Assembly (NCBI GenBank): GCA_951406725.2
Contig: OX597830.1
Span: forward strand, 22,258,001-22,322,000
DNA from: Octopus vulgaris
Taxonomy: Eukaryota
DNA length: 64,000 bases
Direction of reading: 5' to 3'
Every line of letters starts with the position of its first letter. Within the stretch, counting starts at the first letter, position 1. The translations under genes and the position numbers were made by a program. This document shows, piece by piece, positions 1 through 48,400 of the stretch. The notes beneath the pieces were generated by a model. It did no database searches. It saw only the letters and a program-made list of their open reading frames with translations, and had not been told where the DNA came from.

Positions 1-20971
<20,971 letters not shown>

Positions 20972-22732: not shown

Positions 22733-25700
22733 TGCATGGTTTGAAAGTATCTGATAAGCTGTCAGGCTCCAATTTTATCTTGGGTGTGGTTTGTATGGCT
22801 GGGTGCCCTTCTTCATGGCAACCACTTTACAGAGTGTACTGGGTGCTTTTCTTGCGACATTGGCATGAGTGTGGTCACCAAAGAACTTACAAAAGAAAGG
22901 GAAAATCCCCCTTGACTGTGTAGGAGTGTGTTTGAGCGGAGAGGTGGCTTTATGCCAGGTGTAGCAAACTTAAATATGATAGAAAGACAGGTACAAGGTC
23001 TCTTGCTGTAGAGGAAATAAATGGCTATCTCACATTATGCAAGGATGGGTGAGAGTTGCTGGGAGGAAGTCATAAAGATGTTGGTGACTGGATGCTAGAG
23101 CATACTCTCAAGATACAAGAAGATGAGTATAAGGGAAAATATAGACTGTGGATCAGAGATGGGGAAGTAAATGGTGGGTAATTTCATAAGAGTGTGGAAG
23201 GTGGGTAGAAACTGGACTAGAGGTGAATAGTTTTATGTAGTTTAGTTTAATGATGCTGCTGACTGACACAGCTTTTCAATTCTCTTCAACCCACTGATGT
23301 CTTTCATGATATTCAAATGAAATTAGAATCATCCAGTATGGTGTTAACAAATTTGATAACAAAGCTAATAAAACGAGATTACCTGTCAAAAACTCTTAAG
23401 CCCCATGTGATTGAAGCTCCCATTCTGACTGGTTGTACTAAGGAAGGTGTTTCCATTCTACTCATTTCCGATCCGATATGCTTTTTTAACTTTAACACGA
23501 AGTCAAATTGAAGTTTGAACATAGAGAAGTCCAAGAACAACAATTTTAGTGTCTTTAAGAACTGAAAATAACTGGGCCTTAATCTTTGGCAGATCACATC
23601 AAGAGTTTCTTGTGTTTGATGGGAAAAGAAATGACCATTTTGACACAGTATTGAAGCTTGAGTGCTGGTTGTTATGATTACAAGTAAGTTTGCCACGATC
23701 AAATATCAGGAGGGTTCACTGCCCTCAATTCAGCATGAAGAGAGTTCACTGTGAGGTAAGTTTACTGAGAAAATACATCCATAGTATCTCACCATTAATA
23801 TTAAAAACTATTTTAGTAACAATAAATTGTGAATTGGTGGTGAACTTGCCCTGTGGTGAATTGATGACGGTGAACTTACTGGACATTGGTTGTTATGCTG
23901 TTGAGGTTTTAGGATGACAGTTGAAGGTTTGTTTCCAAATTTGCATGTAGTAACTGAAATGGAGTAAAATCTGGAAAGAACTAAATGATGATAGCTGGCT
24001 GTTTTTTGAGAGTTGTACTGATGTCAGCTGTTCTAAAAAAAAAGAGTGTGAAAGTGTTTCTCCAAACCAACTTGTAGTCTAGCAGTCTACTGAGGCAACT
24101 CTGATTTGTTGGCTAAAATCTCTGTTTATTCATAGTTCTTCTTTGTGCAAGTTAGGTATCAAAACAATAAACTGAAAATAGTGCCAACTAGTCAAAAAGT
24201 TATTTATAAGGCATGATCCATCCCCAAAAGCAACCCATTCCAGAAGAAAGCAGGTTGATTGGCTGAAAATAGCTAAGAAAACGAACCATTCATGTGACGG
24301 TTTTTACTATTATTCACTATGTCTGCTACAAATTCAGTTTTCTTTAAGAGGGAAGAGTCTAATACTGGTTTCAAATTTTGGTACAAGGCCAGCAATTTTA
24401 GGGGTGGAGCAAATTGATAACATCGACCAGTGTTCAACTGGTACTTATTTGATCAACCCTGAAAAGATAAAAGGCTGAGTCAACCCCAGTGTAATTTGAA
24501 CTCAGAATGTAAAAACGGATGAAATACTTTAACGATTCTGCCAGCATGCTGCCTTGGGGAAGAATCTGATATTGTAGATCCTTTCTGTTCATCTGAGAGT
24601 GAAGCTGGAAGTATTGTGGTAGCCATTTAAAGCATATTTTCTCTTCTTTCTTTTTTCTACTTTCTGTCAAAGAACAAAATCCCAAAATGCTACATTCTTC
24701 ATTTCCCTTGTAAACTGAACTTATTACATTCCAAAAATGTTCATTTGAAAACAATTGTTGTTTAACCTGGAACATATTAATCTTTTCCTCCATGAACAGA
24801 TTTGAGCTAGACATAGAGTTGATCTTAGAGATTCAGAGGCCTAAATTAAGGACTTACAAGAAAATGGCATTTGGTGAGCTAGGCAAAAATCTACTCCAGG
24901 AAATGGCTTTTAGTGAGGGAATACCCATCAGCCATTGGAGTGATGTTGGGTACAGCAGACTCCATTAGGGTCAAGGATGATACAAATTGGGTTTGGAGGC
25001 TATCAGTTCCCTATTTTACATTGTACCATACATGTGAAGATTTTTTGCTTCTAAGATTTACAAACAAATTTTGTGAAAAAAGAATGCTGAACACAAAGAC
25101 CAGTGACTGTGAAAGCAATTGCTTTGTAAGACCATGTCAGCTTAGTTCAAACAGTTTCATGATAAATGGCATTCCCACCATGACCGTTCAAATTTTTTTA
25201 ACTGTATGTAAGATTACATTGAAATGATGGGGTTTGATTCGAGGGAGATTTGGCAGCTATTTCAAGCAGGCCAAATGACCACATAGAAACTCTAGCAATG
25301 AGTAGCTGTTTTACAGGAGATAGCAATTATTATCGTGAGTGTATATTACAGACTTGCTTTTGTAATACAAATTGTAAAAAGATGGCTGAGGAGTTGCACC
25401 AAGAGAGGAAGGTTTTCTGGTCTTTAGTGATAATGATCCTAATTGTTAGCATAACATAAAATTTACGAGGAGTCCGTGATAGATTGAAGTCTTACACTCG
25501 CTATACAAGGAGATGGGGTGCTGTAACTGCGAACAAGTTTGGATAAGTTCTTAGTCCACGAAACAGATCTTGCTGATATACACTCGAGAGGGAGAAGATG
25601 GATCTCTATCTTCTCCCACTAAACAGCTACAATTTCTTGTAATCAGTATGTACTCTACAGCACTACATCAGCATTATTTTTGTCTATATGAATTTCTCTT

Positions 25701-25772
25701 CAAATGCTTCACGTATACACACTAAATTGCGTTTAAAAATAGTTATTTTCATAAAAGTACTTTTACTTAGAT

Positions 25773-26320
25773 CAGGGGTTTTCAACCATATTTTATCTAT
25801 GGACCCCCTCTCATTACTGTTTTATTCTGGTGGGCCCCTATAGCTATTCAATGTTTAAAATAATAGAAATTTCTTTTAAAATTCCTATTTTGGTTTTCCT
25901 ATTAACTTGTGTAGGTCAAACTATGTAAAATGTTAGAGAAATAAACCTATCTGTTTCGGATCTTTTCACTTTGACCGGCAGATTTAAAAAATAATTTCTT
26001 TGTAACTAAACACTTTTAAACTTCTCATACAGGTACAATGTGTTACATAAAACATCTTTTTCACTTGGCTTTCTTGAGAAAATCCTGTAGTTTGTAAGCT
26101 ATTTGTTGTTAAATTTCTTGCATTTCGGCAATTTCAACCAATCAATGACGTCTATTGAGGTGAATACAATACATACCAATGCATACATCTAAATCAAAAA
26201 TTTCTTCAGGGGCCCTTTAAATATTATTGTGAATTCCAAAGTTGCTATTTTATTATGTGGACCCCCTAAAATTTTATATAGACCCTCAGAGGCAACATGG
26301 ATCCCGGTTGAGAACCACTG
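25773..26320. mobile_element. hAT-type MITE
   Basis: TIRs caggggttttcaacc / ggttgagaaccactg; exact 8-bp TSD acttagat at 25765-25772 and 26321-26328; empty site ~55915. Confidence 0.88.
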
Positions 26321-26699
26321 ACTTAGATCTTTTACTTACAATGCTGGGGCACTGTTTTGAAGGGTTTAGTGGCACAAATCAACCCCAGTGCATATTTTTT
26401 AAGGCCAGGCTCGTATTGAATCGCGGCTCTTTTTGCTGAACAATAAATTACAGGGGACGTAAACAAATGATCACCGGTTGTGAAGCTGTCGTAGACAAAC
26501 ACAAACATAATATCGATAAACGAAGGGCTTCCACGGTTTTCATTCACCAGATTCACTGAGTATTGGTCTCCTCCGGTGCTATAGTAGTAGACATTTGCCC
26601 AAGTGCAGCGCAGTAGGACTGAAACCCAGAACCACTTGGCTGTAAAGCAAGCTTCACAAAAAACCCCCCAAAAAATAGCTTTGTAGATTTTTCTTTCAA

Positions 26700-27056
26700 A
26701 ACAACTACAAAAAAGAGTCCATCGGAATGCACCTCAGTTATAACCCGTAACCTGTAAAGGAACTCTACCTTACGATTTTCAGAAACGCATTATAAGCAGC
26801 AAGAATGAGAAGACTGTTATAAAGCAGACGATCATTGCCATAACGATACATTTAATTTTGACACTTGTGCCATCTGGTGGCAACAACAAAAGAAGTAGCT
26901 TCAACGTCACCGCGAGAGAAGGGAGTTAACTGTTGTATAGAGATAAATATTAACACAGTATTGCGTCCTTAATAAGTTTCTGCTTCAACGTGAAGCCAGT
27001 GGGTCAACATCTCTCGTCGTTGACTTACGCACATAATAATAATAATACATCGTACC
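26700..27056 (+). promoter_or_regulatory. Promoter/5' region of copy 2, CpG-retaining, with CTCF-like motif at 26866-26884
   Basis: CpG dinucleotides are visibly common here but scarce in gene bodies; tgtgccatctggtggcaac is the reverse complement of gttgCCACCAGATGGCACa. Confidence 0.55.
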
Positions 27057-27192
27057 CTGGCTTGTGTCAGTGGTGACATCTCCAGTGACAAGTTAATAGA
27101 CTTAAGGTTTGTGGATCTTTGCAGTGGACTGGAAAAAACGAGGTCTGGACAAGACTGGAGTAAAGGCTGTGCTGTTGGAACGTCTGGAAAAG
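27057..27192 (+). pseudogene. SAFB: Decayed SAP-domain first exon of SAFB copy 2
   Basis: KLIDLRFVDLCSGLEK / RGLDKTGVKAVLLERLEK is a SAP motif split by one extra A in the A6 run 27133-27138; starts accCTGg at 27057 with an in-frame TGA at 27021 upstream; donor aag|gtagga at 27193. Confidence 0.8.
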
Positions 27193-27904
27193 GTAGGAGA
27201 GATCTTATAATCAGCGACGGTGTTTATATATAATATATATAAAGGCATAGCAGTACAATATGTATAATAATGTTTAGGTTTTTTGGACCGTCAAAACTCG
27301 TACAAAAATGTCGAACAGATCAAAATAAACATGCGAATATTGAAAGAAAATTAAGGTTTCGTTGTCGGAAAAAGTCATTGTAGCCATTTTAAACACAACA
27401 TGTAATGACTTGTTATTATTTTATAAAAGCATAATTGATTATTTATTATCAAGTATGAACATCCTTCGTTGTACATGTGTTGTTCCCTGTTCACCAGCAC
27501 CATTTCACTATTTACGGGAATCTAATGGAAATCCAGTGTCAGTGACTTAGTTGTAAACGGACGGCGAAAGACATGAGTAATGGCGGAGTTTCGAAACAAG
27601 TTCAACCACAGAAGTTGAATTTTCTCTCTTTCCGCCGGGATTTTTGAAAATTTCTGTTGCACCACGCATTTCAGAATGATGGAGCGGGGGAGCCTTTTAT
27701 AAAAATACATAGTTTGTTTTTAACGTTGTACTCTTGTATCCTCAGAACCATCACCATTAAAAAAAAAATTTTTTTAATTTCCCCCCTCATTATTATATTC
27801 CATATTTTGGCATACCGACTGAAGTGAGCCTCTCCCCCTCCGACGACTTTGTTTCCTCGTAAATTCAAGAGTAATGAATATTTTTCAATGAAATTTACTA
27901 CAGA

Positions 27905-28168
27905 TACTCTTCCGATGGTTACTATTTATTGTGAAAAGTAATTTTTCTGGGAATGGGAGGGGAGGAGTTTGGGAAAATTCACAGGAGTCCGCTTTGTTTT
28001 CTCATAGTAATTTATACTGTCTTCGTAGAAATTTTCATTAACAACAGATTTTTCTGCAATTTGTGAGAAAACAAAGCGGACTCCTGTGGATTTTCCCAAA
28101 ACTCCTCTCCTCCCATCCCTAGAAAAAAGACTTTTCACAATAAATAGTAATAACCACCAACGGAAGGG
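27905..28168. repeat. Inverted repeat (~100-bp arms), probably the core of a larger MITE ~27640-28440
   Basis: ttactatttattgtgaaaag..cacaggagtccgctttgttttctca / tgagaaaacaaagcggactcctgtg..cttttcacaataaatagtaa. Confidence 0.8.
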
Positions 28169-28539
28169 AATCTAGAAAATTTCGGCGGGCAAGGCGGTCC
28201 GCTATCACACCTCCTTCCGCTTTTTTATTTTTATTTTTTTCTACAGAAACCTATGCTTTCGGCTACAGAGATTCCGAATCTGAAAAAAAAATTAGCAAAA
28301 ATTTTAAAGCGTCACTTTTCCCCCGCCCTCCCCAGTTTCTTCATTTTTTAAAAAACTTTTTCAAATTTTTTTTCTTTTTTTGCGAAATACGTGAAAAAAT
28401 ACGCTGATTATGATTCTAAAAAATTTTTTTTCAATTTAAAAAAGAAAAAATTAACCAGCTAGTTCTGCTTTAATGTCAGATTTTCCTGTGATGCGATCAG
28501 CCTGGTGTGCTTCTGATCAGGTATTAGAAAATGTAGCAC

Positions 28540-29038
28540 CCACTGAGTAGTAGAAACCACTGTCATGCCAGTGCAGAATATTCTCAACTCTGTCATGGGA
28601 TATGCCAATATAGTCAGTCACCTGTCATCCATTAGCTTTTGGTGAACATGGTCAATGTTTTTGTTGGTGGTGCTAGTTGCAGGACATTTAGTTCTTAGGT
28701 CAACTTCAAGATTCTCCTTTCCTCTCCTAAATTCCGTTGCCCACTTTTGCACTCTTGATAAAGCTGGAATGTCATCCCCTAATGTAATAGCCATATCAGC
28801 ATGAATATACTTGGGGGAGCTAAACTCTTTATGTAGCACAATGCCAAATTTTGTCCATTTTCAACTGAAGTTACTATTAGTTACTCTTGAAGTCTTCTTT
28901 GAACAGTTAGTTATCAGTTTACCTGGAGAGAAACAATACAGTTATGAAAAACGAGAGTTGAAATTAATGCATACAATATTTCACTGCTCTTGTATCACTT
29001 CTTTATTGTCAGCCTATGAACTATGTCAGCTCACCCTC
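28540..29038 (-). mobile_element. mariner transposase 5' fragment
   Basis: IHADM..TLGDD.PALSRVQKWATEFRRGKENLE.D.R...PATSTT..NID.VH HTH region; TIR-like end at ~29038. Confidence 0.8.
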
Positions 29039-29579
29039 ACAATCCTGTCTCATAGCAAAATTCACAACCCATCTCCTCGAAAACCCTACCACCCATTGCA
29101 GGCCCCTCCAGTTTCTCTCAACATCATTTGTTATCTCTAAATAGCTCTCCTCACACTTTTATGATACATCTCCTCTATCTCTTCTAATCTACTTATCCTC
29201 CCCCTACAGTTTTCATTAATATTAATACATGTGTTTGTGTCCTCAGGCAAAATTTGCAACTTATGAGTGTAACTTTTGCCCAGGGAGGAAATGAACACAT
29301 ATTAATACTTCCCTTAAAATCTATGTATTTTGCAAATCATATTTGTAATATCCAATGGATGGAGAATACAACAACTAAAGCATGAGGTTTGGAGAAACGT
29401 ATGTAGCAATGCATTAAAAGATTTATTAATTCCCATCCAAAAGTTCTTGTTACTGGTATATTCATCCTCCATTACAGTGGCACCAGACTAAAAATCTTTC
29501 CAAAAAATTATTCTGGAAGATGGGATGAATAAACAGTAGCATAGGGGCTTTTCTAGGTGTACTCAAAAACATTTTACAT

Positions 29580-29817
29580 ATATGTATGTATGTGTCTATA
29601 TATATATTTGTCTATGTGTATGTTTGTCTATGTATGTATTTGTCTATGTATATGTTTGTCTATGTATATATTTGTCTATGTATATATTTGTCTATATATA
29701 TATTTGTCTATGTATATGTTTGTCTATGTATATGTTTGTCTATGTATATGTTTGTCTATGTATATATATATGTCTATGTATATATGTATATATATGTCTA
29801 TGTATGTATATATGTAG
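29580..29817. repeat. Minisatellite, ~16-bp unit tgtctatgtatatgtt
   Basis: Direct reading. Confidence 0.9.
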
Positions 29818-29892
29818 CTGAATTCTTAATTACATATCTGACCTGATATTCATTTTTGTTCCTCTTAATCACATGTTCTTATTATTTTTCAG

Positions 29893-29921
29893 AACATCTA
29901 GCTGCTTTGGTAAAAATTGAG
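29893..29921 (+). other. Candidate small 5' exon of copy 2 (HLAALVKIE)
   Basis: tttttcag|aacatc...attgag|gtgagg; phase 1-0 fits the next exon 30462-30513. Confidence 0.5.
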
Positions 29922-30482
29922 GTGAGGGTTGGTTTTTTAATGAAAATTTCTTTCTAACAGTTTTTTTTTGGACTTGTAATTATCTCAACTTAGTCTTGCT
30001 TAATAATTTCACTAAATTACATAAAATACCATTGAAGAATTTTGCCCCATTCTCATTCCATGCTGTTTCACAGCCAATGTTAGTTTGTTTACATCCCCAT
30101 AATGTTACAGTTTGGCAAATCACTCCAATACAATTAGTACAAGACTTAAAAATGTAAATACTAGGGGCAATTTGTTCAAATAAACCCATGGCTGAAATAA
30201 GTAAATATTAAAAGGTAGTTAATTGTATTAATCTGATTTCAAATAGAATTCACAGATGTTTTCTATCAGCATTTTTCTAAGAATACTTTCATTTCCTTCC
30301 TACATCAATTCTCCCCCCCCCTCTCTCACACACATCTCATTCTAATTACATATAAAAAATTATATTATGTGTCACTTTCTCTAGACATTTTAGCAGCCAT
30401 ACAGAATGTCATGTGTATGTGGACTTTTCTGTTGGTTAACTTGATATTTTGACAATTTTAGGCTTTCTGTGAAGAGAAATAA

Positions 30483-33400
30483 ATGGAAGAAAATCAATCT
30501 ACTGAAGATATTAGTAAGTATCAGAATTACATAACTAATGATACAAATTTTGTATATGTATTTATGTGTGTTAAGATTGTGTGTGTATATGTTATGTGGT
30601 GTGTGTTTCAAATTTTATTGTTGACTGATCACCTCTCTCTATGCCTCTACTTTTGCTTTCTATCCTCTTTTCTGAGCTATATCTTAAGATTGCCATACTT
30701 TACCTTTAATACCTTCTTGTATCTGCTATCATTGTCATACCGTCTCATATCATAACCCTCCCTACACCTTTGTCTCCCATTCTCTATAGCCACCGCTACA
30801 TACTTCTGACATTTATCTCTGTTGCTGTATATCCCCACTTTGTCGATCTGTTTCTCTCTCTTAAGCCCCTCTTTTAATACTGTCTTATTTTCTGGTCTGT
30901 CCACAGGTTTATTATACTGCTGCTTTCCACCTTTCTTGCACTGCCACTTGTCAACTCTTCCTTCCTGAGCCATTCCTATGTTTTCCACATTCCTTTCCCT
31001 TCTCCTACTGATATTTACAATCAACCACACCTCCAGCATTGTTCCTTTACTACATCCACCTCCACCCCACCCCTTCTCTAACCATCTTTTATCACTCTCA
31101 TTTCTCTTTATGATGAACATACCCACCCATCTGTCCTCGCCTTCTTTTATTTTGAGAGTACTCTCTGACACTTTGTCACTACCATCACTGTCTTCTTTCC
31201 ACTTACTCCCACCCATCCTTACATAATGTGGGGTAGCCATGTATTTTCTCTATAAGAAGACACCTGAGCCTGTCTCTCTATCATACTCTGGCCTCTCAAC
31301 ACCTGGCATAACTTCCAACTCTACTGCAATCCCATTCAATGCTGGGTTCTTTTCTTTTGTCTTCAAGTTACTTGGTAACCTCCCTAGTGTTGGTGTCATG
31401 GAAAAATTACCCAGTACACTCTGTAAAGTGGTTGGCATTTGGAATGGCATCCAAGATGTAGAGACCATGTCAGGGCTGACATTGTAACTTGACACAGTTC
31501 TCTGGTTCTGTTGGATCCTGTCAAACTGTTCAACCTACGCCAGCATCAGAGATGGATGTTAATTGGTGATGACACTGATGATAATTCTTGCAAGAATGTT
31601 AGTGGTAACACTGGGAGATGTATCAATCATGATAATTTTAGATTGTAAATAAATTAGATGTGTTGTTCTCCTTACCAAACTGTTTTGTTTCTGTCTACTG
31701 TGCTGACAAGTTCCACTTCCGACTGACAGTAATATATCTTATGGGCAAGAAGTGCATTAAAACTTTTCCTGCCAATGTCAAAGTGTTAATTGGATATAAA
31801 ACAGCAACTTATTTCATGTTCTTATTACTAGTTAATATATAATACAATGTTCTTGTATTCTGGTTTGTCTCACTGAATTTTAGACTGGTCAGATGCATGT
31901 AACAGCATTATGTAATGTAGTGTGATTAATTCACTGTTATGTCTTACACAGCTCTATCAGACTATTTTAGTCTGTGTTCAGATGTGTGTAATACAAGGGG
32001 GTGTGTATGTGTAACTGAATAATGTATAATCCTGAAATTACTGATGTGGTGTTGAAATATTTTTATTTCCAGAAAACGAACATACTACAATCAACATGGA
32101 TGAGGTTGGTGAATTTTTTCATATTTTTATGGATTAATTCTGTCTTGTATGTATTTTCCATTTATCACTGTTTAGCATACTATTTTTTGGGTGACGTTTG
32201 CCAGTTGTTATTTTGAAAAGAAATTCATAACTGGTTATTATTAAAATATTCATTCATTCATACTCTACTGTGATATGTTCAGTTGGTTCACTCTATTGTT
32301 AGAATGTAAATGTCACTTTGATGGGGCTATCCATGAAAAAACCCATTAAACTACACAAATTCATTCTGATTATTAATAACAGTAAAATCTCACAACTGAA
32401 AGGAGCTTTACCTGTCTCACAGCAATGATCACTGTGAATCTCAAACAAGTACCATTATTCTATAATAATACTATAAAGATCATTATAGTAATAAAGGAAT
32501 ACAGTAATAATTCAAGTATTCAAGAAGAATAAGATACTAAAGGATATTACAGTGAGCAAAGGTTAAGTATAGGATGGTTCAATGTTGAGGTGTAACAGAA
32601 ACCTGTTTTGTTTTCATTTTCAGAAAGAGTCAGAGACATCTAATGTGGCATTAACAGATGTCTTCTTAAACACCACCAATCCAGATGGATATTCTTTGCC
32701 CGCTGATAAAACTGTGGAAGACCTTTCTGAAGATCAACTGCTTTCAAGTGATACCAAACCATCAGATATGCTGGCAGATAACACCTTTGATAAAGACCAA
32801 TTTGAAGAAGAACTACCTATCTCTACCTTAGAATCAGACAAAGACACTTGTACTCTGCAGGTAATAAACATTTACTCCAGTTGTTGTTCTACTAACTAAA
32901 TTACACTACTTGATAATTAGTGTTTGATTTGTCTATTAACTTAATAATACATATGAAAATATTTCTTGTTGAGTCTGGTAATTACCTACATTCAACAGAG
33001 TTAACCAGCTATAAATTTCACAGATAATTCTTCAAACAAAAAACCTTTTGAGAACCAAATATCTTGTCACATTTACACAATTACATTAAATATAAAGAGA
33101 AGCAATGTAATACTACTGTATGTATTTTGTATCATCATTTGTTGCTGTTCCTCATGTCAGGTATTTTCTTTCTTTGCTTTTTAGGAAGAACCTGATGAAT
33201 CATTAATGGATACCACAGGTATGTCCTTCACATGTGGTAAATTTTAAAAAATTATCATCTTGTTGTATACTTTGGTTGACTTTACTCCAGCTGTTGAGTC
33301 CTTCTCTATCTTTCAGTGAATATAACAAAACACAACTCTAAATATAATATTCACACAGATTGTGATTTTCCAATGATATATATGTTGTTAATGAAGGTTT

Positions 33401-36400
33401 GTGTTATTGAGATCATATAAATTTCTGGTTATGGATGAACTATATTGGTTCAATACATGATAATCAACTACTAATTTGCCATATGGTGTTATTTGAAAAA
33501 AATGTTTACTGCCATTCCACCACTGACAGTTGGTTTGTACAGTTTAGTTTTGAAAATTATAATCGGTTTAATTGAAAGGTTTATATCCAGTTCTTGGTAT
33601 AGTGCAGTATCTGTTTTTGTAGAAAGCTGTAAAAGCAAAAATATTGTTTGACCTTTTCTTTTTTATAAGGATAGTCAATTCTGGCTCCTCTACTATAGTG
33701 TGTGTGTGTGTGTGTGTGTTGCTTTGAGTTAAGTGGTTTATATTTTTATTGTTTATACCATGTGTTGCTGTATCACATGTATTTTATTTTTTTATATTTA
33801 TATTTGTTTAGTTCAACATTTTTAGCAATTAGATTACTCTGCTTACTTATTCACATTGTTTTGAATTAATCTTTCATTATCTCATAACTTTGACTTTTTG
33901 ATGATGTGGTTATTTTTAGATTGGTATTGTTGTGTATATGTGAGATGCTGGATCCGACTAGTTTGAACATAAAGCAGGTAGAATATTTGGACTGAGTTAA
34001 AATTAGATTTAGATGTATAACTTTGGATATCTACTTGTTTCATCGAATTCAGAGTTTTTCATGGGGATGCGTGCCATATTTTGAATATTGCTTTGTTGCT
34101 TTAACATAAGCAAAAGGTGACTTCATTTATAGGTGAGGTGGAATAAGATTGTGTGAGACTCGTGCTTTTTTATATTGCAATAACATGAAATAAAAATATC
34201 ATTTAGAAACAGAAACAAAACCAGGATTTAGATAGTTGTCTGATCCTTACCTCTTTAACTTATGTATTATCAATTTGTCATCTGACATAAGCAAAATACT
34301 CCAGAGATGTAAAGAAGAAGAATTTGAATGTTAGCTCATTCATGCCATTCCACTCTGATAACAAAAATTAAAATTTGGTTGTGAACTTGATTACATGGGT
34401 GAGAGAATTAATTTCTTAATGTTTGAAGAAAAAATGATTACAAAATAGCATAAAATAATTTCTAATAATTCATGACATCACTTGCAGAAGTGGTTCTGAA
34501 TAGCGAAAGTTCATTTTAGCACAAATAATAAAATGATGAATAATTGTTGATTCAAGATAATGGTTGACAGGTCTTTTTTCAAGGAATATAATTATTACTT
34601 GAATTCAGAAATTTTGAAACCTGTATTCAGAATGTGTTGTATATGGCATAACTACAGATTCCTGCCCGCCCCACCAACTTTGGATGATCATAACTCTGAG
34701 AAAAATGGATATTTTTTTATGTAATTATCTATGAACATGTGTTATATCATGTAGACTCCAAATATACAAAACTTTTGGAGGAAAGTGTTTTAGGAGGGGA
34801 TGGGGTGGGGAATTCGTAAAATTCACCGGTGTCCACTTCAATTCATCTTAACTTTCAAGAAAATAGATATCTTTTAATGAAATTTTTTACAAATATACCT
34901 CGGACTATGTAGATTCCGAGAACATGAATTTGGGGGGAAAACAATTGGGGATTACTTTTGAGGACTGCTCCCCACTCGGGGGTGTTTCGGAACAAGTCCA
35001 TATTTGTTTCATTTTCTCTGTTTGTGTGTCTGTAGATTTCTAGTCCTCACATGCACATATATATGTAATTTAAAATGTTCAAACGGGGAATTATTCTATT
35101 CAATGTCTTTCTGTTAGAAACGTTTAGACCTTTAGCTGGTATTTTTAGCATAACGAGTTTTCTTGTGACAGCTTAATTGCCTGCTGCTTCAGTAGAAATC
35201 TGCAGATACACAAAATGGAGAAAATGAAACAAATACGGGCGACTTGTTCTGCCCCTCCCCAAGTGGGGAACGGTCCTCAAAAGTAACCCCTAATTGTTTT
35301 CCCCCTAAATTCATCTATTTTCTTGAAAGTTAAGATGAATTGAAGTGGGTGCTGGTGAATTTTCCGATATTCCCCACCCATCCCCTCCTAAAACACTTAC
35401 CCCCAAAAGTTTTGTATATCTGGAATCTGCATGATATAACATATATTAGTAAAAAAAATTTCATTAAAAAATATCCATTTTTCTCAGTTATGATCATCCA
35501 GAGTTGGTATTTGGGCGGGGACAGGAATCTAGTTATGCTGTGTATATTTGTATATGCATATATATATATACACATACATACATACATATACACACACACA
35601 CATATACAGAGGGTTTGTCATAAACTGTTATACACTAACAGTGTATAATAATCATGGAGTTGAACTGTGGTAACCAATCTAATTTACTTAAAATAATACC
35701 ATATAAACGAAGTTTATATGCAAACATTTTCATTGTAGAAATATGAGTTAACGACATTACGTCACTGTAACATAGGCTCAGTTCTGCAAGGAAATGTTGA
35801 TGTAGTTATGCAATGGTCTTAGTTTTGTTGTTTGTATATTTTAGTCAGATGAGGTAACATTTCATGTGGATGGCATCATCATTCATAAGCTCAGTGTAAT
35901 TGGAAACTTCTTGTTTGATATCAGCCTACTAGCTTTCAGCTTTGTCTGTATGGTGTTGAAATGTATTCATAAGGCACATATTGGCATCTATCGTAATGCC
36001 CATTTTCCTTACAATAAAAGTTGTTAAAAAATATTGCATAACATAATTTAACAAAATTAGTTAAATACAGAAACTAATATAGATAATAATAGAGAAAAGT
36101 ATTGGACGAAAATTATAAAACATTTATAGAACTTCAGTATTCAGAATGTTTTTAACTTTTTTCTTTGGAGCATATATAAAGAGTTCCTGTGGGCTTTCTA
36201 CTCTGGAACAACCTACATACAATTGACCATCCTCTTCTAGATGGAGACTGACAACCAGCAGTGTTTGACCTTGGGACTTATTAATGGTCAATGTGTAACT
36301 GACTCTCACTGGAAATTGCAATCGTTTGAAACGAAAGGGGACACCTGTATGCATTAGTGGTGTTCTAGGTATAAATACAATGTCTCCCTTACTACATCCA

Positions 36401-39400: not shown

Positions 39401-42400
39401 TTCCTTATTTAAACTCTCAACACAGCACAGTCTGTTGTGGAGTGAGATTTAACAAGTTTTCATTTCGTATCAACTATTTCATTCTAAATTAACTTTCTGT
39501 AGCACCTCCAGAACAGTCATCTTCATCAGCGGAGACAAATACTAAAGAAGAAAAGAGTGAAATGTCCTCATCAACAGAGAATGACACAAAAGAAGAAAAT
39601 AATGAAGAAAAGTCCTCGTCAGCCAGTGTGAAAAGCACAACTCCATCACAGAAATGTAATGAACTGAAAGGAGATAAGGTGGCCAAATCAGCCCTCACGG
39701 ACAGTTTACCTTCAACACCAAGTGTTCCACACAAAGTGCCATTTGCATTAAAAAATAAAATGAATATGGACACTTCCACCAGTCAACAGGGTGAAGAAAA
39801 TGAATCACTGATTGTACATGTTGATGATACACAGAATGATTTAGATGCTGATCTTGTGGCATCAAAGGACAAAGTGCGTGGCAAAACTGAAGCAAAGAAA
39901 ACAGATGGAAGCAAAGTTGAAGAAAGGGCTAAAGGTAAAACAGAAGGAGGGCAAACTGAGAAGAAGGCTGATGAAAAGAAAGATGATAAAGATGTAAAGT
40001 CGAAGAGGTTGGTTTTCATGTCATCTTTCCCACTGCTTTGATTCAAAGATGTCATTAGTTAAATGATCTTACTTCTCGGTAACAGATGTTGACATCTTGA
40101 CTGCAACTGGGGTCTACAACTGCCAATGGGAACAGATTTTCTTAAACCTTAAGTTAACCTGTTTAAGTAGGTTTTCTTCAGAGAACATCCTCTCATGGCT
40201 AATCGTGAGTTATTTTAAAAGAGAATGTGTGTATGTGGTTTGGTTGTTAGATTCAGGTTCAAACTACTAATTATAGCAATGATAGACATTTTCCTAGTCT
40301 TCTTCATAAAACATGAGAATCTGCTGTAATGATTGTACTTTGGAAATACTATTAAAGACATGGCCTGGGCTGTAATTGATCTGAACTTATCTGAGGTATA
40401 TTTCCATTAGTTATTCATGTTTGAGACAAAAAGGAAAACCCACGTTTTCTCCTGGGTCATTTCTTAGTCTCTTAAAAAATTGATGTAAATTGTTGTGAGT
40501 GTACATGTGATGGATGATACCAATGAGGATGTTTGCTAGGTAATGTTGCGCTAGTATTCATCATATTTTAGATGGTTATTGTAAACTATAGTTCATGAAC
40601 TAAAAAGGGCCAGCAAAGTGTTCGGGGGTTGGCTGGAAATCAGGAATCTCAGTTGAAATATAATTACACATGCTCAGAGTTAGATGTTAAACGATTACCC
40701 AATTACTGATGAGTTATCTACAGGAACAGATAAATCAATGTCAAGACGCAATAATGTCTGGATGAAGACACCAACAAACAATTGAAACGGAAGAGGATGA
40801 GGGATCCCAAGTTCCCAAGAATACACAGACATGATTCAGTGGATGTTAGATAATTCATAATTTTTTTGACAAGATACAAATTGGAAGATGTTTGGAAAAC
40901 CTGAAGACTAAGTCAGTGGTTCCTGTATTCCAGCCATGTTACTGCTAAATTAGCAGTTATCATTTAGGGAATTCCACATTGCTTGCTGACCTCTTTTTAG
41001 CTTCATGAAGACTATAGTTCTTGTCTTTTTGTACATTTTCTTTCAAAAGTGTCAGTTGTATGTTGCTGATGTGTAGTGTCAGTTGTTAGCTAGTTTAGGT
41101 ATTCCATTTATTGTCTTAACCAATATCTTCGTTTGAGATTAGTGTTTTTTGTATTCATTTATTCCTGAAAGGGGATAATAAATGACTATTACAAAAATAC
41201 AGCAGGTAAGCTTCTTTCATCATGATACTTTTCCCTATGTGCAATAATAATTTGTTAATAGAAATATTTATATTACAACATAATGTGTAGAACCTCTTTA
41301 CTTTAATAAATGTTAGTTATTTTGTTACATCATTCTTCCTCCCTTACATAATAAACATGTCTTTAAGAAGTGTGTGTGTATGCGCATATGTATGTGTATG
41401 TATATATATATATACTTCCACATACACACACATAACTAAATAAATTCATAGCACTCATTTGCTTCCTTTAATACATATCTCTACATATTTATTTAGAGTT
41501 AGGGTCCTAGGATGAAGTGATATCGTTTGAGTGTAGTAGTTGAAAGTAATTCACATGAATAATCAAAAATTGTTCCAATAGCATTCCTATGACATTCACT
41601 ATTGATGGCAGTCATACTAATATTTCTAAGTATTGTTTTATTGTTGCAGTTCTTCAGCTTCTAAACCCAAAGTTATCAAAAGTATCAAGAGTAAGTATTT
41701 TTTCTTGTTTTGGACTTCATTCACTAATCTTATGTTTTTGATGTGAGGTATTTGAAATCTTAACCTTGAAGGGTCAGATTTCCTGGTAATCTTTCCATAT
41801 TCATTTGTTTCTGTACTTCACAGGCAATGACCAAAACAGTCGGAATTTGTGGGTCAGTGGTCTTGCCACAAGCACCCGTGCTACAGACCTTAAAGTGCTT
41901 TTTACCAAATATGGCAAGGTATGTTGAATAATATCTGTTTCTTATATTTCATGTAATTTGTTACTAATCATATTTATTACTAATTAGTACTTAGATTCAC
42001 ACTATGCTTGTCTAGAGTGTGTTTACACTCTAAACAACTCTCTCTTCTCCAAATGTAGTCACTGTCAGACCATCAGCACTCTCTGCTTTGTGTGTGGTTG
42101 TCCACAACACAAGCTCAACATAACTTCCCTGCTCACTTCAGGTTAGCCGACTGGTTAGAATTCCACCAGTTCTACACTATTTTCTTTGACACATGTACTT
42201 GACTCTGGACCCATCAGAGACAGCTAGGTAGGTGACAGAAAACATACTCTTTGGCATGTCCCTTTATATCCCATGCAAAACCAAAATTGTCTCGGGTCCT
42301 CTAAGTGGTTCAGTCTTAGCTGTGTTGCAGCATTTCATGCAAAGCATACAGCCTGAAATACTTAGAGAAAAGTCACTCTTACAATCAAGGCTTTTATCTT

Positions 42401-45400
42401 GTTAGTGACATTGTGTGTACACCCTATAATAACTCCCATTTTTAGTCCTTTTTCCCAGAATGTGAACTTTCTAGAATCTTTTTCTGGCAGCTGTCATTTG
42501 CAACTATTTAAGCAAAATATCAGTCATATAGATTTGTCCAATCTTAGAAAACCTACAAAGATCATGGACCCTGCCTTTTTTTTAATTTTTGGACTAAACC
42601 AATTAAATGCTTGTTGTAAAGAGTTTTACTTAATCTCTGTTTAAAACATTTACTGCTTTTAATCTACAGTACCATTGTAAAAATCTTTTTTTGAAATAAT
42701 TTATTAGTATTGGTAATATTGGGTTGAATAAATGCCAAAATAAATTTTTGTGTTTAAAATTTAATTTTGTTTTTGTTTTTGTCTACATCAGGTTGTTGGT
42801 GCCAAAGTAGTGACAAATGCACGAAGCCCTGGTGCTCGATGTTATGGTTTTGTAACTATGTCTTCTTCACATGAAGCTTCTAAATGTATTCAACATTTGA
42901 ATCAGACTGAACTGCATGGCCGTATGATATCAGTTGAAAGGGTGAGTTATCCAAAGTTCATTATTTTGTTTACAGACCCAATTATCAGCTACTGAATTAA
43001 ATGTTATCAGCATTTCATTGTCAGCTGTTAGAAACATGCTCAGCATTTGAAATAGATATCGGTCATCTTTAGAGTAAGGTTGAGATCATCAATTATGGTC
43101 AGTTATTGAGAAAAATATGTGTTGTTCAACTCACAAACCCAGGCCATCAGTTCATCAAAGCCCTTCAGCATCCTCCTGGTATTTCACGACAAATTTTGTT
43201 TCATAGTCAGTATGTCCTTAATGGGAACCTATTAGACACCAGTGTTGGTGAGCAGTCCTGTTCACTACACATCAACCAGCTTAGTATTTTCATAGCATGT
43301 GTGTTAAGGATCACTGAAATGGTTTTTTAGTTACAGTACACTTGTTGGGTTTGTGCCACTCTGATATTGTAAATCTGACAGAGACTAAAGCAGTAATCCA
43401 GAATGATGTCTTTTAATTTGTGTTCTGTTTAAAAAGCCATTTGTAAGGTCCAGCCACAATAGTACCAGTTCTCTTGTTGAAGGTTTCTCTGATCAACTGA
43501 TTAACCATACTGGAATATTCCAGACACCTTGATGTCCTTTAAGAACTGAAGTATCAGCATAGAAGTTTCATTGGAGGTAATTTGTCAGGTGGCTAGCAAC
43601 AGTGCAGAAGAATAATGTCCTTTCAACACCCCTTCTTCACACTACCACTGCAGGGCTTTGCTGAATTCTCTGTAAGGTATTGATCATCTTCTGGGGCTTA
43701 ACCTGCCCTTTACCTTCTTAACCATTTCCTAGACCTCTTTCTAACTGGGTCCTTTGTTGTCAAATTCCAGAGCTCGTGAAGATGGATTGCTCAAGGGCTT
43801 TAAGTGGCTTATATCGTGGTCCCTGAACTCACTTCTTAAAGTAACTCATATGACTCGATCGTGCCTCTGGAGCAAGTGAGCTGACCCTTGCCCCAGCAAC
43901 TATTTTGTAAACCCACATGTGTTTGCTTGAAAAGTAGCTTGCTTCCTAGTCCATTGTCTCCTTTGCTATTCAGCTGTAAGGGCCATGACCTTTTATTGAG
44001 AGGTCTCCTTTCCTCCCCTCTTGCCTTTTTGAGCTGCTATCGTAAGCTCTTGAGTTCCCATTTAAGCTTATGGATTGTATTATCCCTGCTATGTATGATG
44101 TAAAGAAGTTTCACTGCTTTCTTCTCCAACCTGAATATCTTAACTGCTAGACTGATGATGGTCATAGTTATGATGTGTGTGTGAATGTATAACATGCAAT
44201 GATATCAGTAATAATCTATTGGTAGAGAGATGTGTGATGATAAACTGTTGAATGTATGTACGTGTTTGAAGGGAGTACAAATACATCGTTAATAAGGGTT
44301 TAGAGAAAGTAATATTTCCTGTTTTTTTTTTTTTTAGGCTAAAAGAGAACCTACAACTCAGGCTAAAGCACCAGAAACCAAAACAGGAGAAAAGAAAGTA
44401 GAAAAGGGTGAAGTGAAGAAAGATGGTATGACTTCTTCCAGTGTTTCATATTTGTACCCTAAACAGAATTTGGCTCTAGAATTCCACTGGTCATTGAAGT
44501 TAGCTGAACTTAGTGTTTCATGTTACTAACAAAGTAATTAGTTTAATAAAACCATTGGCATTTCACAATTACTTAACAGTAGTAATAGTATTCAAAGAAT
44601 CATAAATATCAGGTGTGACTGTGTGGTAAGAAGTTTGCTTCCTAACCACACGGCTTTAGCTTCAGTCCCACTGTGTGGTACCTTAGGCGAGTGTTTCCTA
44701 CTATAGTTCCAGGCTGACCTAAGCCCCATGAATGGATTTGGTAGGCAAAAACTGAAAGACGTCTGTTGTACATATCTTACATATATAAACATATCCGTGT
44801 GTTTGGGTGTGCCTGTGTGTATGTTGCTGTCTCCTTGCCTTGACTTTTTGTGATAGCTGTAAAGAATTGTTGCTATGATGTAAACAATTTGCTGTGTTTC
44901 CAATCTTCCATGAAAACATGCCTGGTCATTAGAGTATATTATTGTACTTGGAACCAGATAAGGGTTCATGATAGGAAGTGCATCTGTCCATAGCAAAATC
45001 TGCCTCAACTAATTTCCTGTTCTCCATTCAATCATGGAAAAAGTGGACATTAAAAACTGTGATGATGATGATTAGTTGACACTTATAGGCAACTCTGTAT
45101 TGCCTTGAAGTCTCCAGATTGTGATAGTGTTTCTATGTGTGTTTGTGCTGTTTGCAGAAAAAAAAGATGGTGATAAGAAAGTTGAGAAGAGAGAATCAAA
45201 GAAAGATGATAAAAGCAGGAGAACGTCCAGCAGAAGAGATGACAAAAGACATAGTAGCAGGAGCAGCAGAAGTCGTCACAAAAGCTCAGGTCAGTCTTAC
45301 TAAAGGTCGCACGTGTGTGTGTGTGTGTGTTTTGTCCTTGTACAAAAGCTTGGGTCAGTCTTACTAAAGGTCACGTGTGTGTGTGTTTTGTCTTTGTACA

Positions 45401-48400
45401 AGAGTAGCTTGTTCTGAAGAGAATATGGTACTGGAATAATTTCCTGATTTGTGCTGAGTTCGACTGGCAAGATTTATAGAAATACATTTATTGCTGGATC
45501 TTCGGTGCCAGTGTGGCTTTGTAGTTATGCGTGGTACCTTGGGCTAGTGTCTTCTGCTTTAGCCCTGAGATGCCCTAAGCCTTGTGAGTGGATTTGGTAG
45601 ATGGAAATTGAAGTAAGCCTATTGTATATGTTATACCATTGTCTTGGTGTCATAAGATGGTTGTAAAGAAGCATTGCCATCGGACAGATTAATTTGTTGG
45701 TTTTAAGTCATCTCTGAAAAATTTGTGTGGTCATGGGAAATATCACCTTGCTTGAAAATAGGTGAGAATTGGCTACAGGAAGAATATGGACATTAAATGA
45801 TGGTGATAAATGATTCACTGTTTCAGATAAATCTCATGCAACTACACCAAATAAGAGTACAGCTGAACCAGCTGCAAAAGAAGGCTCTGAGAAAAGTGCA
45901 GAGCCTGCAGCAGCAGCAGGCGCCAAGGAGAAAGTTCCCAGTACAACAAAGCCTAAACCACGAGGACCTGGTGACCCTGCTTCCAAGAAAGATATTTTAT
46001 CATTTGATCAAATAAAAGTAAGTACAATTTTATGTATGTGTTTTTAATGTGGCTAAAGTGTGTAGTTGAAATAGAATAAGATAAATAATTTCACCTTGAA
46101 ACTAGAGTGGCTAATACCACTTACTTGACCCTAAATTTAGAGTGTATTATCCCTGATATCATCTTGAAATCTTGAGATAGAGCTCCCCTGCCTTAAAACT
46201 GGTTATAACTGGTGTGTTAGCTTTGAAATGCATTGTCTTCCAGTGAAGGTCTTAGTGTGTAGCACGCCTGAGATGTAACCGAAAGAAATTGTTTAAATTA
46301 TGCAGATTGATTCAGATGTGACTCTGCAATAGTCACAATAGTTGTGATAGTAATTGTGGCTGTTGCAATATAGAATATGTAAAGAAATTTCAAATCAGAT
46401 TAGGTGGAAGAAGGTCAATTATTTCATTATAATAGAAGCGCTGGGCTACTGGGAACATGATTATAATTTCAAATCTTTCTGCAGCTGTTATGTTTTGTCC
46501 TATTTGCTGTAATAAATTATATAATTATACTTACTCAAGTTTGCTCAACTGATAAAATTTATTCCAATTTTACTTCAAGGTTGAATGCTTAGCAAGAGGA
46601 GGGAAATGTAGCTCCTAGTCTAGTGGGGAAAAATTATGTAAAACAAAAGATTTGTTTCTATATCTGGGTACAGGAGTATTATGATGTTTTTGTGTTTTAT
46701 TCAGAATAACAAAAATCTATGATGTGTCTGTATTAAATTATTGTGGTATTTAGATTTGCCATTTTTTATGTCCCTATATGTATTATATCAGTAGTCTTAT
46801 TTTGTACGGTTATTTAGCTTTGTGTGTGTTTCTTTGTTGATTTTGTGTTTGTTTTATTCTTTGCTTTGTAATAATTATTCTCTTTTCATATTCCATTCTT
46901 GAAAATAAAAACAAAACCCCACCAAATTTCTTGACAGAAGGAAAGAGAGCGACAGCGTTTACGTCAGAGACAAAGGAATCGTAGGGAACAGGAGAGGCGT
47001 CGGTTGAAAAAACTTGATATGGCTCGGATGCTTCAACAGAATGTGGAACGAGAACAGAAGGAGGAGGTGAAAAGATTGGGCAAAGTCAGAGAGCAGATAA
47101 GGTTTGTGAAAAGTGCATTCACATTTAAACTGTTTTAGACAGAATGTCGTGATTTTGTGAGAAAGAAGTTTACTTCACACCGCCATGATACCAAATGTTA
47201 AAAGCTGTCTCAAGGCCCAATCCTATTTTTGGTGGTAGAATTATTTTGTTGTCTTGTTTAAGACTACATCTGGTCCTTGGGTGCCTTTACCACATTACAC
47301 ACTTTTTCAAACTTTCAGGCCTGGTCTTTAATCTAAGGATAACTTCTGCCCTTCTTCAAATTGGTCTTGGAGACTCTGAGAAAGCACTTTAAATATTGCT
47401 ATACCTTAAAGACTTAAGTACTGTTGTTTTAGATGTTTTTGTAGATAGTAGTTGTGACGTATGAGGAATTAGGAAGTTGTTACAAAAGTAGAGAGTAAGT
47501 TATTTTAAATGAATAATGAAAGAAGGAAGATATTCAGTATATATGGGAAAAAAAGTAAAGATTAGAATATGTAAGATGTATTGGCTATGTATTTACTATC
47601 TATATTCTTTCTTCAGATTGTTTTAGCAATCTCCTGATATCATTTTAACCCTCTTGGGACACCCAGGCTGATTGATCAACCTGAATGATACAAGCTGTAA
47701 GGATTTTGAGGCCAGTCCATCAGTCTGGTGGAAGAAATGTTGTGAATGGTTGGTTTTGAAATGTAATAGCTAATCAGAGATTGTCTTCCAGTAGATGTAT
47801 CTCAATATAAAAAAAAAAATGTTGGTCCTTTTGTCTACACATACCAAAACATCATGTGTTTCAAAAGGGTTAAGATTTTATAATCAGTGGATTGGTTGGA
47901 CACCATTGTAAATTTTTGACTCTTGTTTCAAGATAAAGAGAGAACGATATATTTAGAGTAGTTTTCCTCGATACCCTTTCAAAACCCAAAGAAGAATTGA
48001 ACTTAGTTGCAATGAAAGTTAAGGAAATGATTGTCAGACAAACATTTCCTCATTTCTTGTGAACTTTTCTTTTTTTTATTGTTTATTTATCTTACAGGTC
48101 TATGATCAAGGACATTATAAGTTTATCTGTTCCTTTTTTTTTTTGGGGGGGGTATCTATAGTACTATATTGTCTATGTATTTTGTGTTTTAAAATGATAG
48201 GATGTTATATGATACCTTCACATTGTACTTATTAAGTTGTGGGTGAATGTTTATGTAAGACTTTAGTATCTTTGTCCAAATTGTTTTTCTGTTATATGTC
48301 AAGAGGCTTTTCTTTATTCTTCCTGTCTTTATAGTTTATGTGTAGATTCCTCAACATCATCTAACAATCCTAACATTTAATGTTAATCTAAAAATATACA

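Follow-up and report, generated by a model that had tools for sequence, protein, structure and literature searches.

The SAFB family, which includes human SAFB1, SAFB2 and SLTM and Drosophila SAF-B (CG6995), is defined by criteria that include a nuclear matrix location and the binding of purine-rich RNA. SAFB proteins are reported to repress splicing into transposon RNA, and the same source gives one SAFB copy for invertebrates (PMC10901741). Drosophila SAF-B deprived of its SAP domain remains in the nucleus, and RNA mediates its recruitment to transcribed loci (PMC2857882). Loss of a start codon, or an early stop, is reported to be rescued by a downstream in-frame AUG with production of a shortened protein from an internal Met, while reinitiation is described both within a main ORF and in the TURBS type (caliciviruses, influenza B), whose layout places stop and start within 20 nt of each other (PMC10275272). 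A literature search for octopus or cephalopod SAFB, whose coverage mostly excluded subscription journals, found no paper on the subject.

The DNA analysed here, a 64,000-nt stretch of the Octopus vulgaris genome (the window), is part of an Octopus SAFB tandem array. Judged from sequence, the array appears to hold about seven copies, two of them without SAP. Genomic DNA of paralogs was read within the window, and all features below lie on the forward (+) strand unless stated otherwise. The 3′ part of an upstream paralog (gene 1) occupies positions 1 to 20971, its 5′ end falling outside the window; blastn blocks match it to the second gene with 69–86% identity, covering introns and the 3′ flank too, and by eye it resembles O. 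sinensis XP_036366413.1. The second gene carries an ORF of 842 codons, as the sequence-only reading of this DNA had proposed, in 17 exons (30483–53738). Homolog search and tree both trace this gene to SAFB genes. In the tree, built without gene 1, it forms one clade with its O. sinensis and O. bimaculoides counterparts (support 98/99); type E went into it in the form of cut segments, so that its placement is not to be read from this tree and an independent loss of SAP in type E is no more than a possibility.

The coding exons lie at 30483–30513, 32073–32104, 32624–32860, 33185–33218, 39503–40007, 41650–41690, 41824–41918, 42792–42941, 44338–44425, 45158–45289, 45827–46017, 46938–47101, 48878–49003, 50447–50572, 52115–52261, 52907–53046 and 53449–53738, and all 18 introns of the gene model are of the GT..AG type. 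Two exons encode the RRM (41824–41918 and 42792–42941), the second with a Pfam RRM_1 match of E=1.1e-6, and an R/E-rich exon is present in two copies of 126 nt (within 48878–50572), both also found in O. bimaculoides models. The octopus copy thus shares with the SAFB family the RRM (PF00076) and the K-rich, R/E-rich and G-rich regions, the R/E-rich and G-rich C-terminal regions being recognised from translation and exon-wise identity to paralogs. The ORF is identical to O. sinensis XP_036366415.1 at 818 of 837 residues, including all 111 of the first four coding exons, and to O. bimaculoides XP_052829889.1 at 652 of 689 (94.6%), including all 50 of the RRM exon, in a species whose split is reported at about 34 Mya (10.1101/2023.05.16.540928). 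Both annotated orthologs (P0002, P0016) contain the RRM and give no Pfam SAP match, and the records, in which they are auto-named ‘scaffold attachment factor B2’, do not mention a relic SAP exon. The O. sinensis protein starts at the same MEENQ as the window ORF, and in O. bimaculoides the models begin (MDTT) some 108 residues further on; since the model of a further paralog in O. bimaculoides is likewise N-terminally cut, the absence of SAP in that species may reflect an assembly gap. The earlier suggestion that the DNA-binding module was lost and the RNA-binding protein kept agrees with this comparison of sister species and with the intact RRM and R/E-rich ORF. The gene is a direct paralog of the SAP-bearing octopus SAFB proteins, but it has no translated SAP, and its sequence marks it as a derived SAP-less SAFB paralog rather than a canonical family member.

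Upstream of the ORF, the remains of the SAP-coding part are readily recognised. Exon 1 (26970–27192, the 5′ limit being the end of a contig rather than a mapped transcription start) comprises a former 5′UTR and the SAP-coding exon, now likely a leader; it matches paralog residues 1–45 by tblastn, and its 3′ half has a Pfam SAP match (E=4e-6). It sits in a CpG-rich region (26250–28250, no strand assigned), likely a promoter, in which the CpG observed/expected ratio is 0.63–1.18 in 500-nt windows starting at 26250–28000, versus 0–0.2 at 28500–33500. Four lesions distinguish this end of the gene from its intact paralogs. The initiator Met is replaced by CTG (27057–27059), whose context accCTGg (27054–27060) is inherited from the old ATG, and no ATG occurs between 26806 and 27192; a run of six A (27133–27138) adds one nucleotide relative to the paralog reading; a 55-nt exon is missing; and TAA stands in place of Tyr80. 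The SAP remnant is consequently split across two frames and has no ATG. Seven of its 45 residues depart from types A and B, which show 0 of 45 differences between themselves, and all seven changes fall in codons 1–24, with none in codons 28–45 (P about 0.03, post hoc), a clustering that plain decay does not predict and that conversion from paralogs may explain.

The CTG and the A-run, both already noted from the sequence, are not assembly errors, since they recur in the DNA of a second organism and the CTG also in a contig of putative RNA. In run X6 (organism C), DNA contig 22 (26650–27165) keeps the C at 27057 and is gap-free at the A-run, although the run lies 27 letters from the contig end, just below the 31-letter bridging rule. 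Contig 6 of run X13 (organism A, 26970–27138) keeps the CTG and breaks off at the A-run, where a single letter is left unaligned. The unusual DLCSGL of the SAP remnant is indeed present in the window, but its Cys (T27120) is private, both runs having C (Arg) there. This comparison covered the window up to 29570 and showed no contig in which exon 1 is joined to 29893; the RNA status of X13 and X15 is a guess; two of the four runs (X6 and X13) have contigs over 27057, X8 and X15 being without coverage there and uninformative on expression or absence, and the X15 contigs near exon 1 derive from paralogs only. Over 27057–27165 all four differences between the remnant and organism C change amino acids (chance expectation 77%), which fits an absence of constraint without proving it.

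The loss of the 55-nt exon was overlooked in the sequence-only reading. In intact paralogs exon 1 is followed by this exon and then by the 29-nt one, and putative paralog RNA contigs extend into the 55-nt exon. Neither its DNA pattern nor its peptide was found in intron 1 of the window gene (27193–29892), the best peptide score being only 16–18 against 91–92 for the exon with itself. The 29-nt exon (29893–29921; HLAALVKIE versus paralog NLAALVNIE) is ancestral exon 3, now likely non-coding. Loss of the 55-nt exon cancels the +1 of the A-run, so that in the two exons that follow, the ‘shifted’ frame is the ancestral one. A frame read from the CTG through 27057–27192, 29893–29921 and the exon at 30462 does remain open, as first noted, for 61 codons until TAA at 30480–30482, but only 18 of these codons (27139–27192) are new. 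The ancestral frame on the e1–e3 path ends after 20 codons. Restoration of the frame (1/3), absence of stops from the 18 codons in that frame (94/825) and a stop adjoining an ATG (2/29) are individually modest coincidences, which accumulate and are counted against the best reading. As the +1 and the lost exon offset each other and the frame stays open, it is plausible, if a little less than evenly probable, that the two once made up for one another while the original ATG was still in place; this would be history rather than present control. A programmed ribosomal frameshift at the A-run was considered and rejected: by inspection the A-run heptamer does not lie in the register that a –1 shift requires, the downstream fold has z=+0.67, and no long ORF is regained.

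The junction itself has a simple origin. In the 52-nt exon (30462–30513), the TAA at 30480–30482 corresponds to Tyr80 of the paralogs and the ATG at 30483–30485 to Met81 of the type A paralog. Among 22 proteins with the EEKxxEENQ motif, which are isoform models of about three loci, the position of the TAA is Tyr in 18 and Cys in 4, and the following residue is Met in 11 and Leu in 11. In the window sequence the TAA-ATG is the ancestral Tyr80-Met81 in which one nonsense change turned the Tyr codon into a stop, the adjacency thus being inherited. The ATG has T at –3, a point against the best reading; the TAA might improve its context through the A at –1, a possibility that was considered.

We consider it likely, with a probability of roughly 0.65, that this tandem SAFB copy, its SAP exon broken, is translated into a SAP-less protein of 842 aa from Met81, which ribosomes would reach by ordinary scanning through a decaying 5′ leader. 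Exon 1 would be spliced to the downstream exons, giving a leader that, as modelled, is 273 nt long and contains no ATG, so that scanning reaches Met81 and reinitiation is unneeded. Met81, an ancestral internal Met and the first AUG, would serve as the start, with the old SAP-coding exons probably persisting only as a decaying leader. Such a protein would presumably act on nascent RNA through its RRM and R/E domains, as the engineered Drosophila SAF-B does; that protein was made in the laboratory, whereas the octopus copy is a natural gene, known here from sequence alone. A shortened product from an internal Met would be the feature shared with the rescued start losses and early stops of PMC10275272. 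Compared with the reinitiation within main ORFs in that source, the octopus gene differs in that its upstream AUG is gone.

The sequence-only reading had instead suggested that the remnant may act as a CUG uORF under termination-reinitiation control; the 61-codon uORF would end at the TAA and ribosomes would reinitiate at the adjoining AUG, tuning output. A strong-context CTG is kept in two organisms, its frame is open up to a stop next to the ATG, the coincidences stack in its favour, and, given inclusion of the 29-nt exon, stop and start adjoin as they do in TURBS. Yet this adjacency derives from the ancestral Tyr-Met, and skipping of the 29-nt exon would end the frame after 48 codons instead. 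The octopus gene also lacks an AUG-started upstream ORF, apparently a conserved upstream protein as well, and the UGGGA core of TURBS, the 273-nt leader having no match to UGGGA and just words with one mismatch. Folds of the leader and exon 1 are not significant (z = –1.0, –1.1 and +0.7), and an Rfam search of 25500–33500 gave no match. Reinitiation is reported to drop with uORF length and normally to require a spacer (PMC5972666). The uORF peptide appears not to be conserved, as the differences from organism C suggest; in organism C, the one other organism covered, the CTG frame persists as far as the contig reaches (27165), short of the stop codon. Four further near-cognate codons of the leader have an equally strong context. 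A regulated CUG uORF may exist but lacks support, and we regard it as unlikely, the proposed switch being likely an accident of decay. Equally unlikely is its fuller version, in which dead SAP exons were kept after the compensating insertion and exon loss as a CUG-started 61-codon uORF that sets the dose of SAP-less SAFB; if true, at least two octopus copies would be RNA-only, and on nascent RNA rich in transposons, SAP-less SAFB would compete with the full-length paralogs.

About as little credence is due to the idea that the 842-aa mRNA mainly uses a first exon other than exon 1, its 5′ end being supplied by another promoter or by read-through splicing out of the paralogs upstream, a route by which SAP could be restored. 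It is suggested by the end of X13 contig 6 at 27138 without continuation and by the O. vulgaris models CAI9735053/54, in which a SAP-bearing N-terminus of type A is fused to the C-terminus of the 842-aa gene; these joined models may stem from mis-mapping among near-identical paralogs, and exon 1 is favoured by its CpG-rich surroundings, by the putative RNA contig found there and by the canonical splice sites of the gene model. Appreciably less probable is a protein that starts at the CUG and carries half a SAP as an N-terminal extension, the TAA being a private allele, splice-skipped or edited from UAA to UGG. A-to-I recoding is common in coleoids, the private T27120 makes a private TAA conceivable, and the paths e1–e3–e6, e1–e5–e6 and e1–e8 keep the CTG frame open, but the extension peptide appears unconstrained, and the shifted peptide (45-codon CTG frame) had no match among proteins of 24–79 aa in what was a weak search. 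That the whole copy is a pseudogene, as four lesions at its 5′ end might suggest, is very improbable in view of 842 codons open over 17 exons, the 94.6% identity to O. bimaculoides and the invariant RRM exon. A homopolymer is an error-prone site, but the attribution of the lesions to assembly errors is the least credible reading of all, given the CTG in X6 and X13, the A-run in X6 and an O. sinensis model that also lacks SAP.

Duplication, loss of a start and use of an internal Met are an ordinary process, and all the steps of SAP loss are still visible in the 842-aa gene copy. The more interesting part is not the CUG stop-restart but the array itself. With about seven copies, of which two apparently have no DNA-binding domain, it would be a natural test of whether the RNA and DNA roles of SAFB are separable.

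Gene 2, the SAFB-like gene that carries the SAP remnant, lies on the forward strand at 27057–53738, head-to-tail with the 3' part of SAFB-like gene 1 (1–20971, same strand), and the two are 69–86% alike across introns and 3' flank. The top protein matches of the window are Octopus SAFB models (13 hits, 1651 candidates in the homolog search); the 3' exons of gene 2 fully match O. vulgaris models and its ORF is 97.7% identical to an O. sinensis model, which places the source octopus in the vulgaris–sinensis group. All 18 introns of the gene 2 model are GT..AG, exon 1 (the SAP-coding exon, to 27192) sits inside a CpG-rich region, and the ATG at 30483 opens, as proposed earlier, a frame of 842 codons in 17 exons. 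In both genes a 126-nt R/E-rich exon is duplicated with its intron flanks (13440–13572 and 15574–15700; 48878–49003 and 50447–50572). Intron 1 of gene 2 holds a high-copy element (28400–28990; depth in the thousands in X6, a DNA run from organism C), which presumably resembles a mariner-type fragment.

The main ORF is identical to O. sinensis at 111 of 111 positions of the first four coding exons and to O. bimaculoides at 652 of 689 (RRM exon, 50/50), with split times given as ~2.5 and ~34 Mya, respectively (10.1101/2023.05.16.540928). In a tree of 18 rows, built from the last exons only, gene 2 and the copies of both species form one clade (support 98/99). The annotated orthologs in both species lack SAP, although the start of the O. 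bimaculoides model is unreliable, because another paralog model of that species is also truncated. Over the 45 residues of the SAP remnant, paralog types A and B agree throughout and the remnant departs from both at 7; its four differences from organism C all change the residue (0.35 by chance), which fits drift but does not prove it. Loss of SAP with the RNA-binding protein kept is supported by the lesions of the SAP exon, the open 842-codon ORF and the SAP-less annotation of orthologs, and a pseudogene is very improbable.

As to these lesions, contigs of four runs were compared over 26000–29570, two being informative, X6 and X13 (RNA by guess, organism A). The accCTGg at 27057 is present in the window, and the C of its CTG recurs in both runs, X13 with a contig over 26970–27138 and X6 with one 518-nt contig over 26650–27165. 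A6 at 27133–27138 is also present, and the X6 contig, whose end is 27 letters from the A-run, has no gap there. The X13 contig stops at the A-run, a single letter there being unaligned, and nothing that continues it in the window's letters was seen; its end at 27138–27139 may reflect a variant in A-run length or a filtered contig. At 26475–27165, X6 contigs have depths of 170–211 against 23–39 nearby; contig 22, the 518-nt one (170), is therefore possibly a collapsed or non-orthologous copy, and organism C may carry several copies of this promoter-exon unit. An assembly error is the least probable of the alternatives. The motif DLCSGL stands in the window, but its Cys is private to it, both runs reading C at 27120. 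Five in-frame ATA codons (27033–27047) precede the CTG, and A-to-I editing of any would give an AUG for its frame; no A>G was found at them in the X13 contig.

Read through exon 1 and the exons at 29893–29921 (29 nt) and 30462–30513, the CTG frame of the window sequence runs for 61 codons to the TAA at 30480–30482, directly before ATG 30483, but if the 29-nt exon is skipped it ends at codon 48. In intact paralogs, 18 extra residues separate the SAP exon from the 29-nt exon, and paralog RNA contigs continue from 27193 into that extra exon, its length of 55 nt being inferred from exon phases. It is absent from intron 1 of gene 2, where the best peptide score is 16–18 (self, 91–92) and its DNA pattern has no match. 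Since +1 and –55 sum to a multiple of three, the ancestral frame is regained in the next two exons; the claimed shift thus holds for 18 codons only. Frame restoration has a chance of 1/3 and 18 stop-free codons in that frame one of 94/825, jointly ~0.04, which favours an earlier phase when the insertion and the loss of the exon offset each other under the original ATG, but does not demonstrate control today.

For the proposed termination-reinitiation through a CUG uORF speaks the stop adjoining an ATG, for which the chance is 2/29. However, paralog models, isoforms of about three loci, have Tyr (18/22) or Cys (4/22) at the TAA position, followed by Met or Leu (11/22 each), so that TAA-ATG derives from Tyr80-Met81 by a single base change; no internal Met of the type A paralog comes before Met81. 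As modelled, the leader of 273 nt contains no ATG; scanning therefore reaches Met81 and reinitiation is unneeded. No UGGGA core, described as the defining feature of TURBS elements (PMC5972666), was found for the leader, nor any significant fold, and reinitiation is reported to drop as the uORF gets longer (PMC10275272; PMC5972666). The observation is real and SAP loss supported, while the reinitiation idea is unsupported; a regulated CUG uORF is unlikely, another first exon or read-through splicing about equally so, and a CUG-started extension improbable. We favour, with a probability of roughly 0.65, an mRNA whose leader is a relic and whose translation would start at Met81, giving an SAFB with RRM and R/E regions and without SAP.

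Plain decay does not account easily for the remnant, as its seven changes all fall in codons 1–24 and none in codons 28–45 (P about 0.03, post hoc); read in the ancestral frame, the dead exon keeps every amino acid from 27139 on. One X6 contig, probably from a paralog and dissimilar to the window further upstream, matches 27135–27235 with 3 differences in 101 letters (97%), including 43 nt of intron, a pattern compatible with conversion by a paralog; 27139–27235 is possibly a conversion tract or under splicing-enhancer constraint. Over 39503–41918, the O. sinensis model (201/214 against the window) has paralog-type residues where the window and O. bimaculoides (206/214) agree, and conversion seems likely from this pattern, a mixed O. 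sinensis model being the alternative.

O. sinensis has ~7 SAFB-like loci (types A–E, gene 1, gene 2), counted by distinct C-termini. Type E (O. vulgaris CAI9735044.1; O. sinensis XP_029646838.1, misnamed "epsin"; models P0031 and P0032), outside the window, is a second SAP-less SAFB-derived paralog. Its RRM is diverged, its tail is rich in repeats, and the later Met at which it starts corresponds to one within exon 39503–40007. The O. vulgaris model P0049 fuses a 320-aa ORF, which we take to be retrotransposon gag-like, to type C SAFB, while O. sinensis annotates this ORF separately (P0050). For Argonauta, the homolog searches gave a single SAFB cluster; invertebrates are said to have a single SAFB orthologue (PMC10901741), and no description of the octopus array was found in the literature searched. 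The RRM is strongly diverged in gene 1 (exons 7830–11030) and type D (whose main RRM exon matches that of gene 2 at 21/50 positions), which suggests that RNA specificity has changed among the copies of the array. SAP-less Drosophila SAF-B is described as nuclear and reaching chromatin via RNA (PMC2857882); by analogy, the SAP-less product of gene 2 would remain in the nucleus, with RNA bringing it to chromatin.
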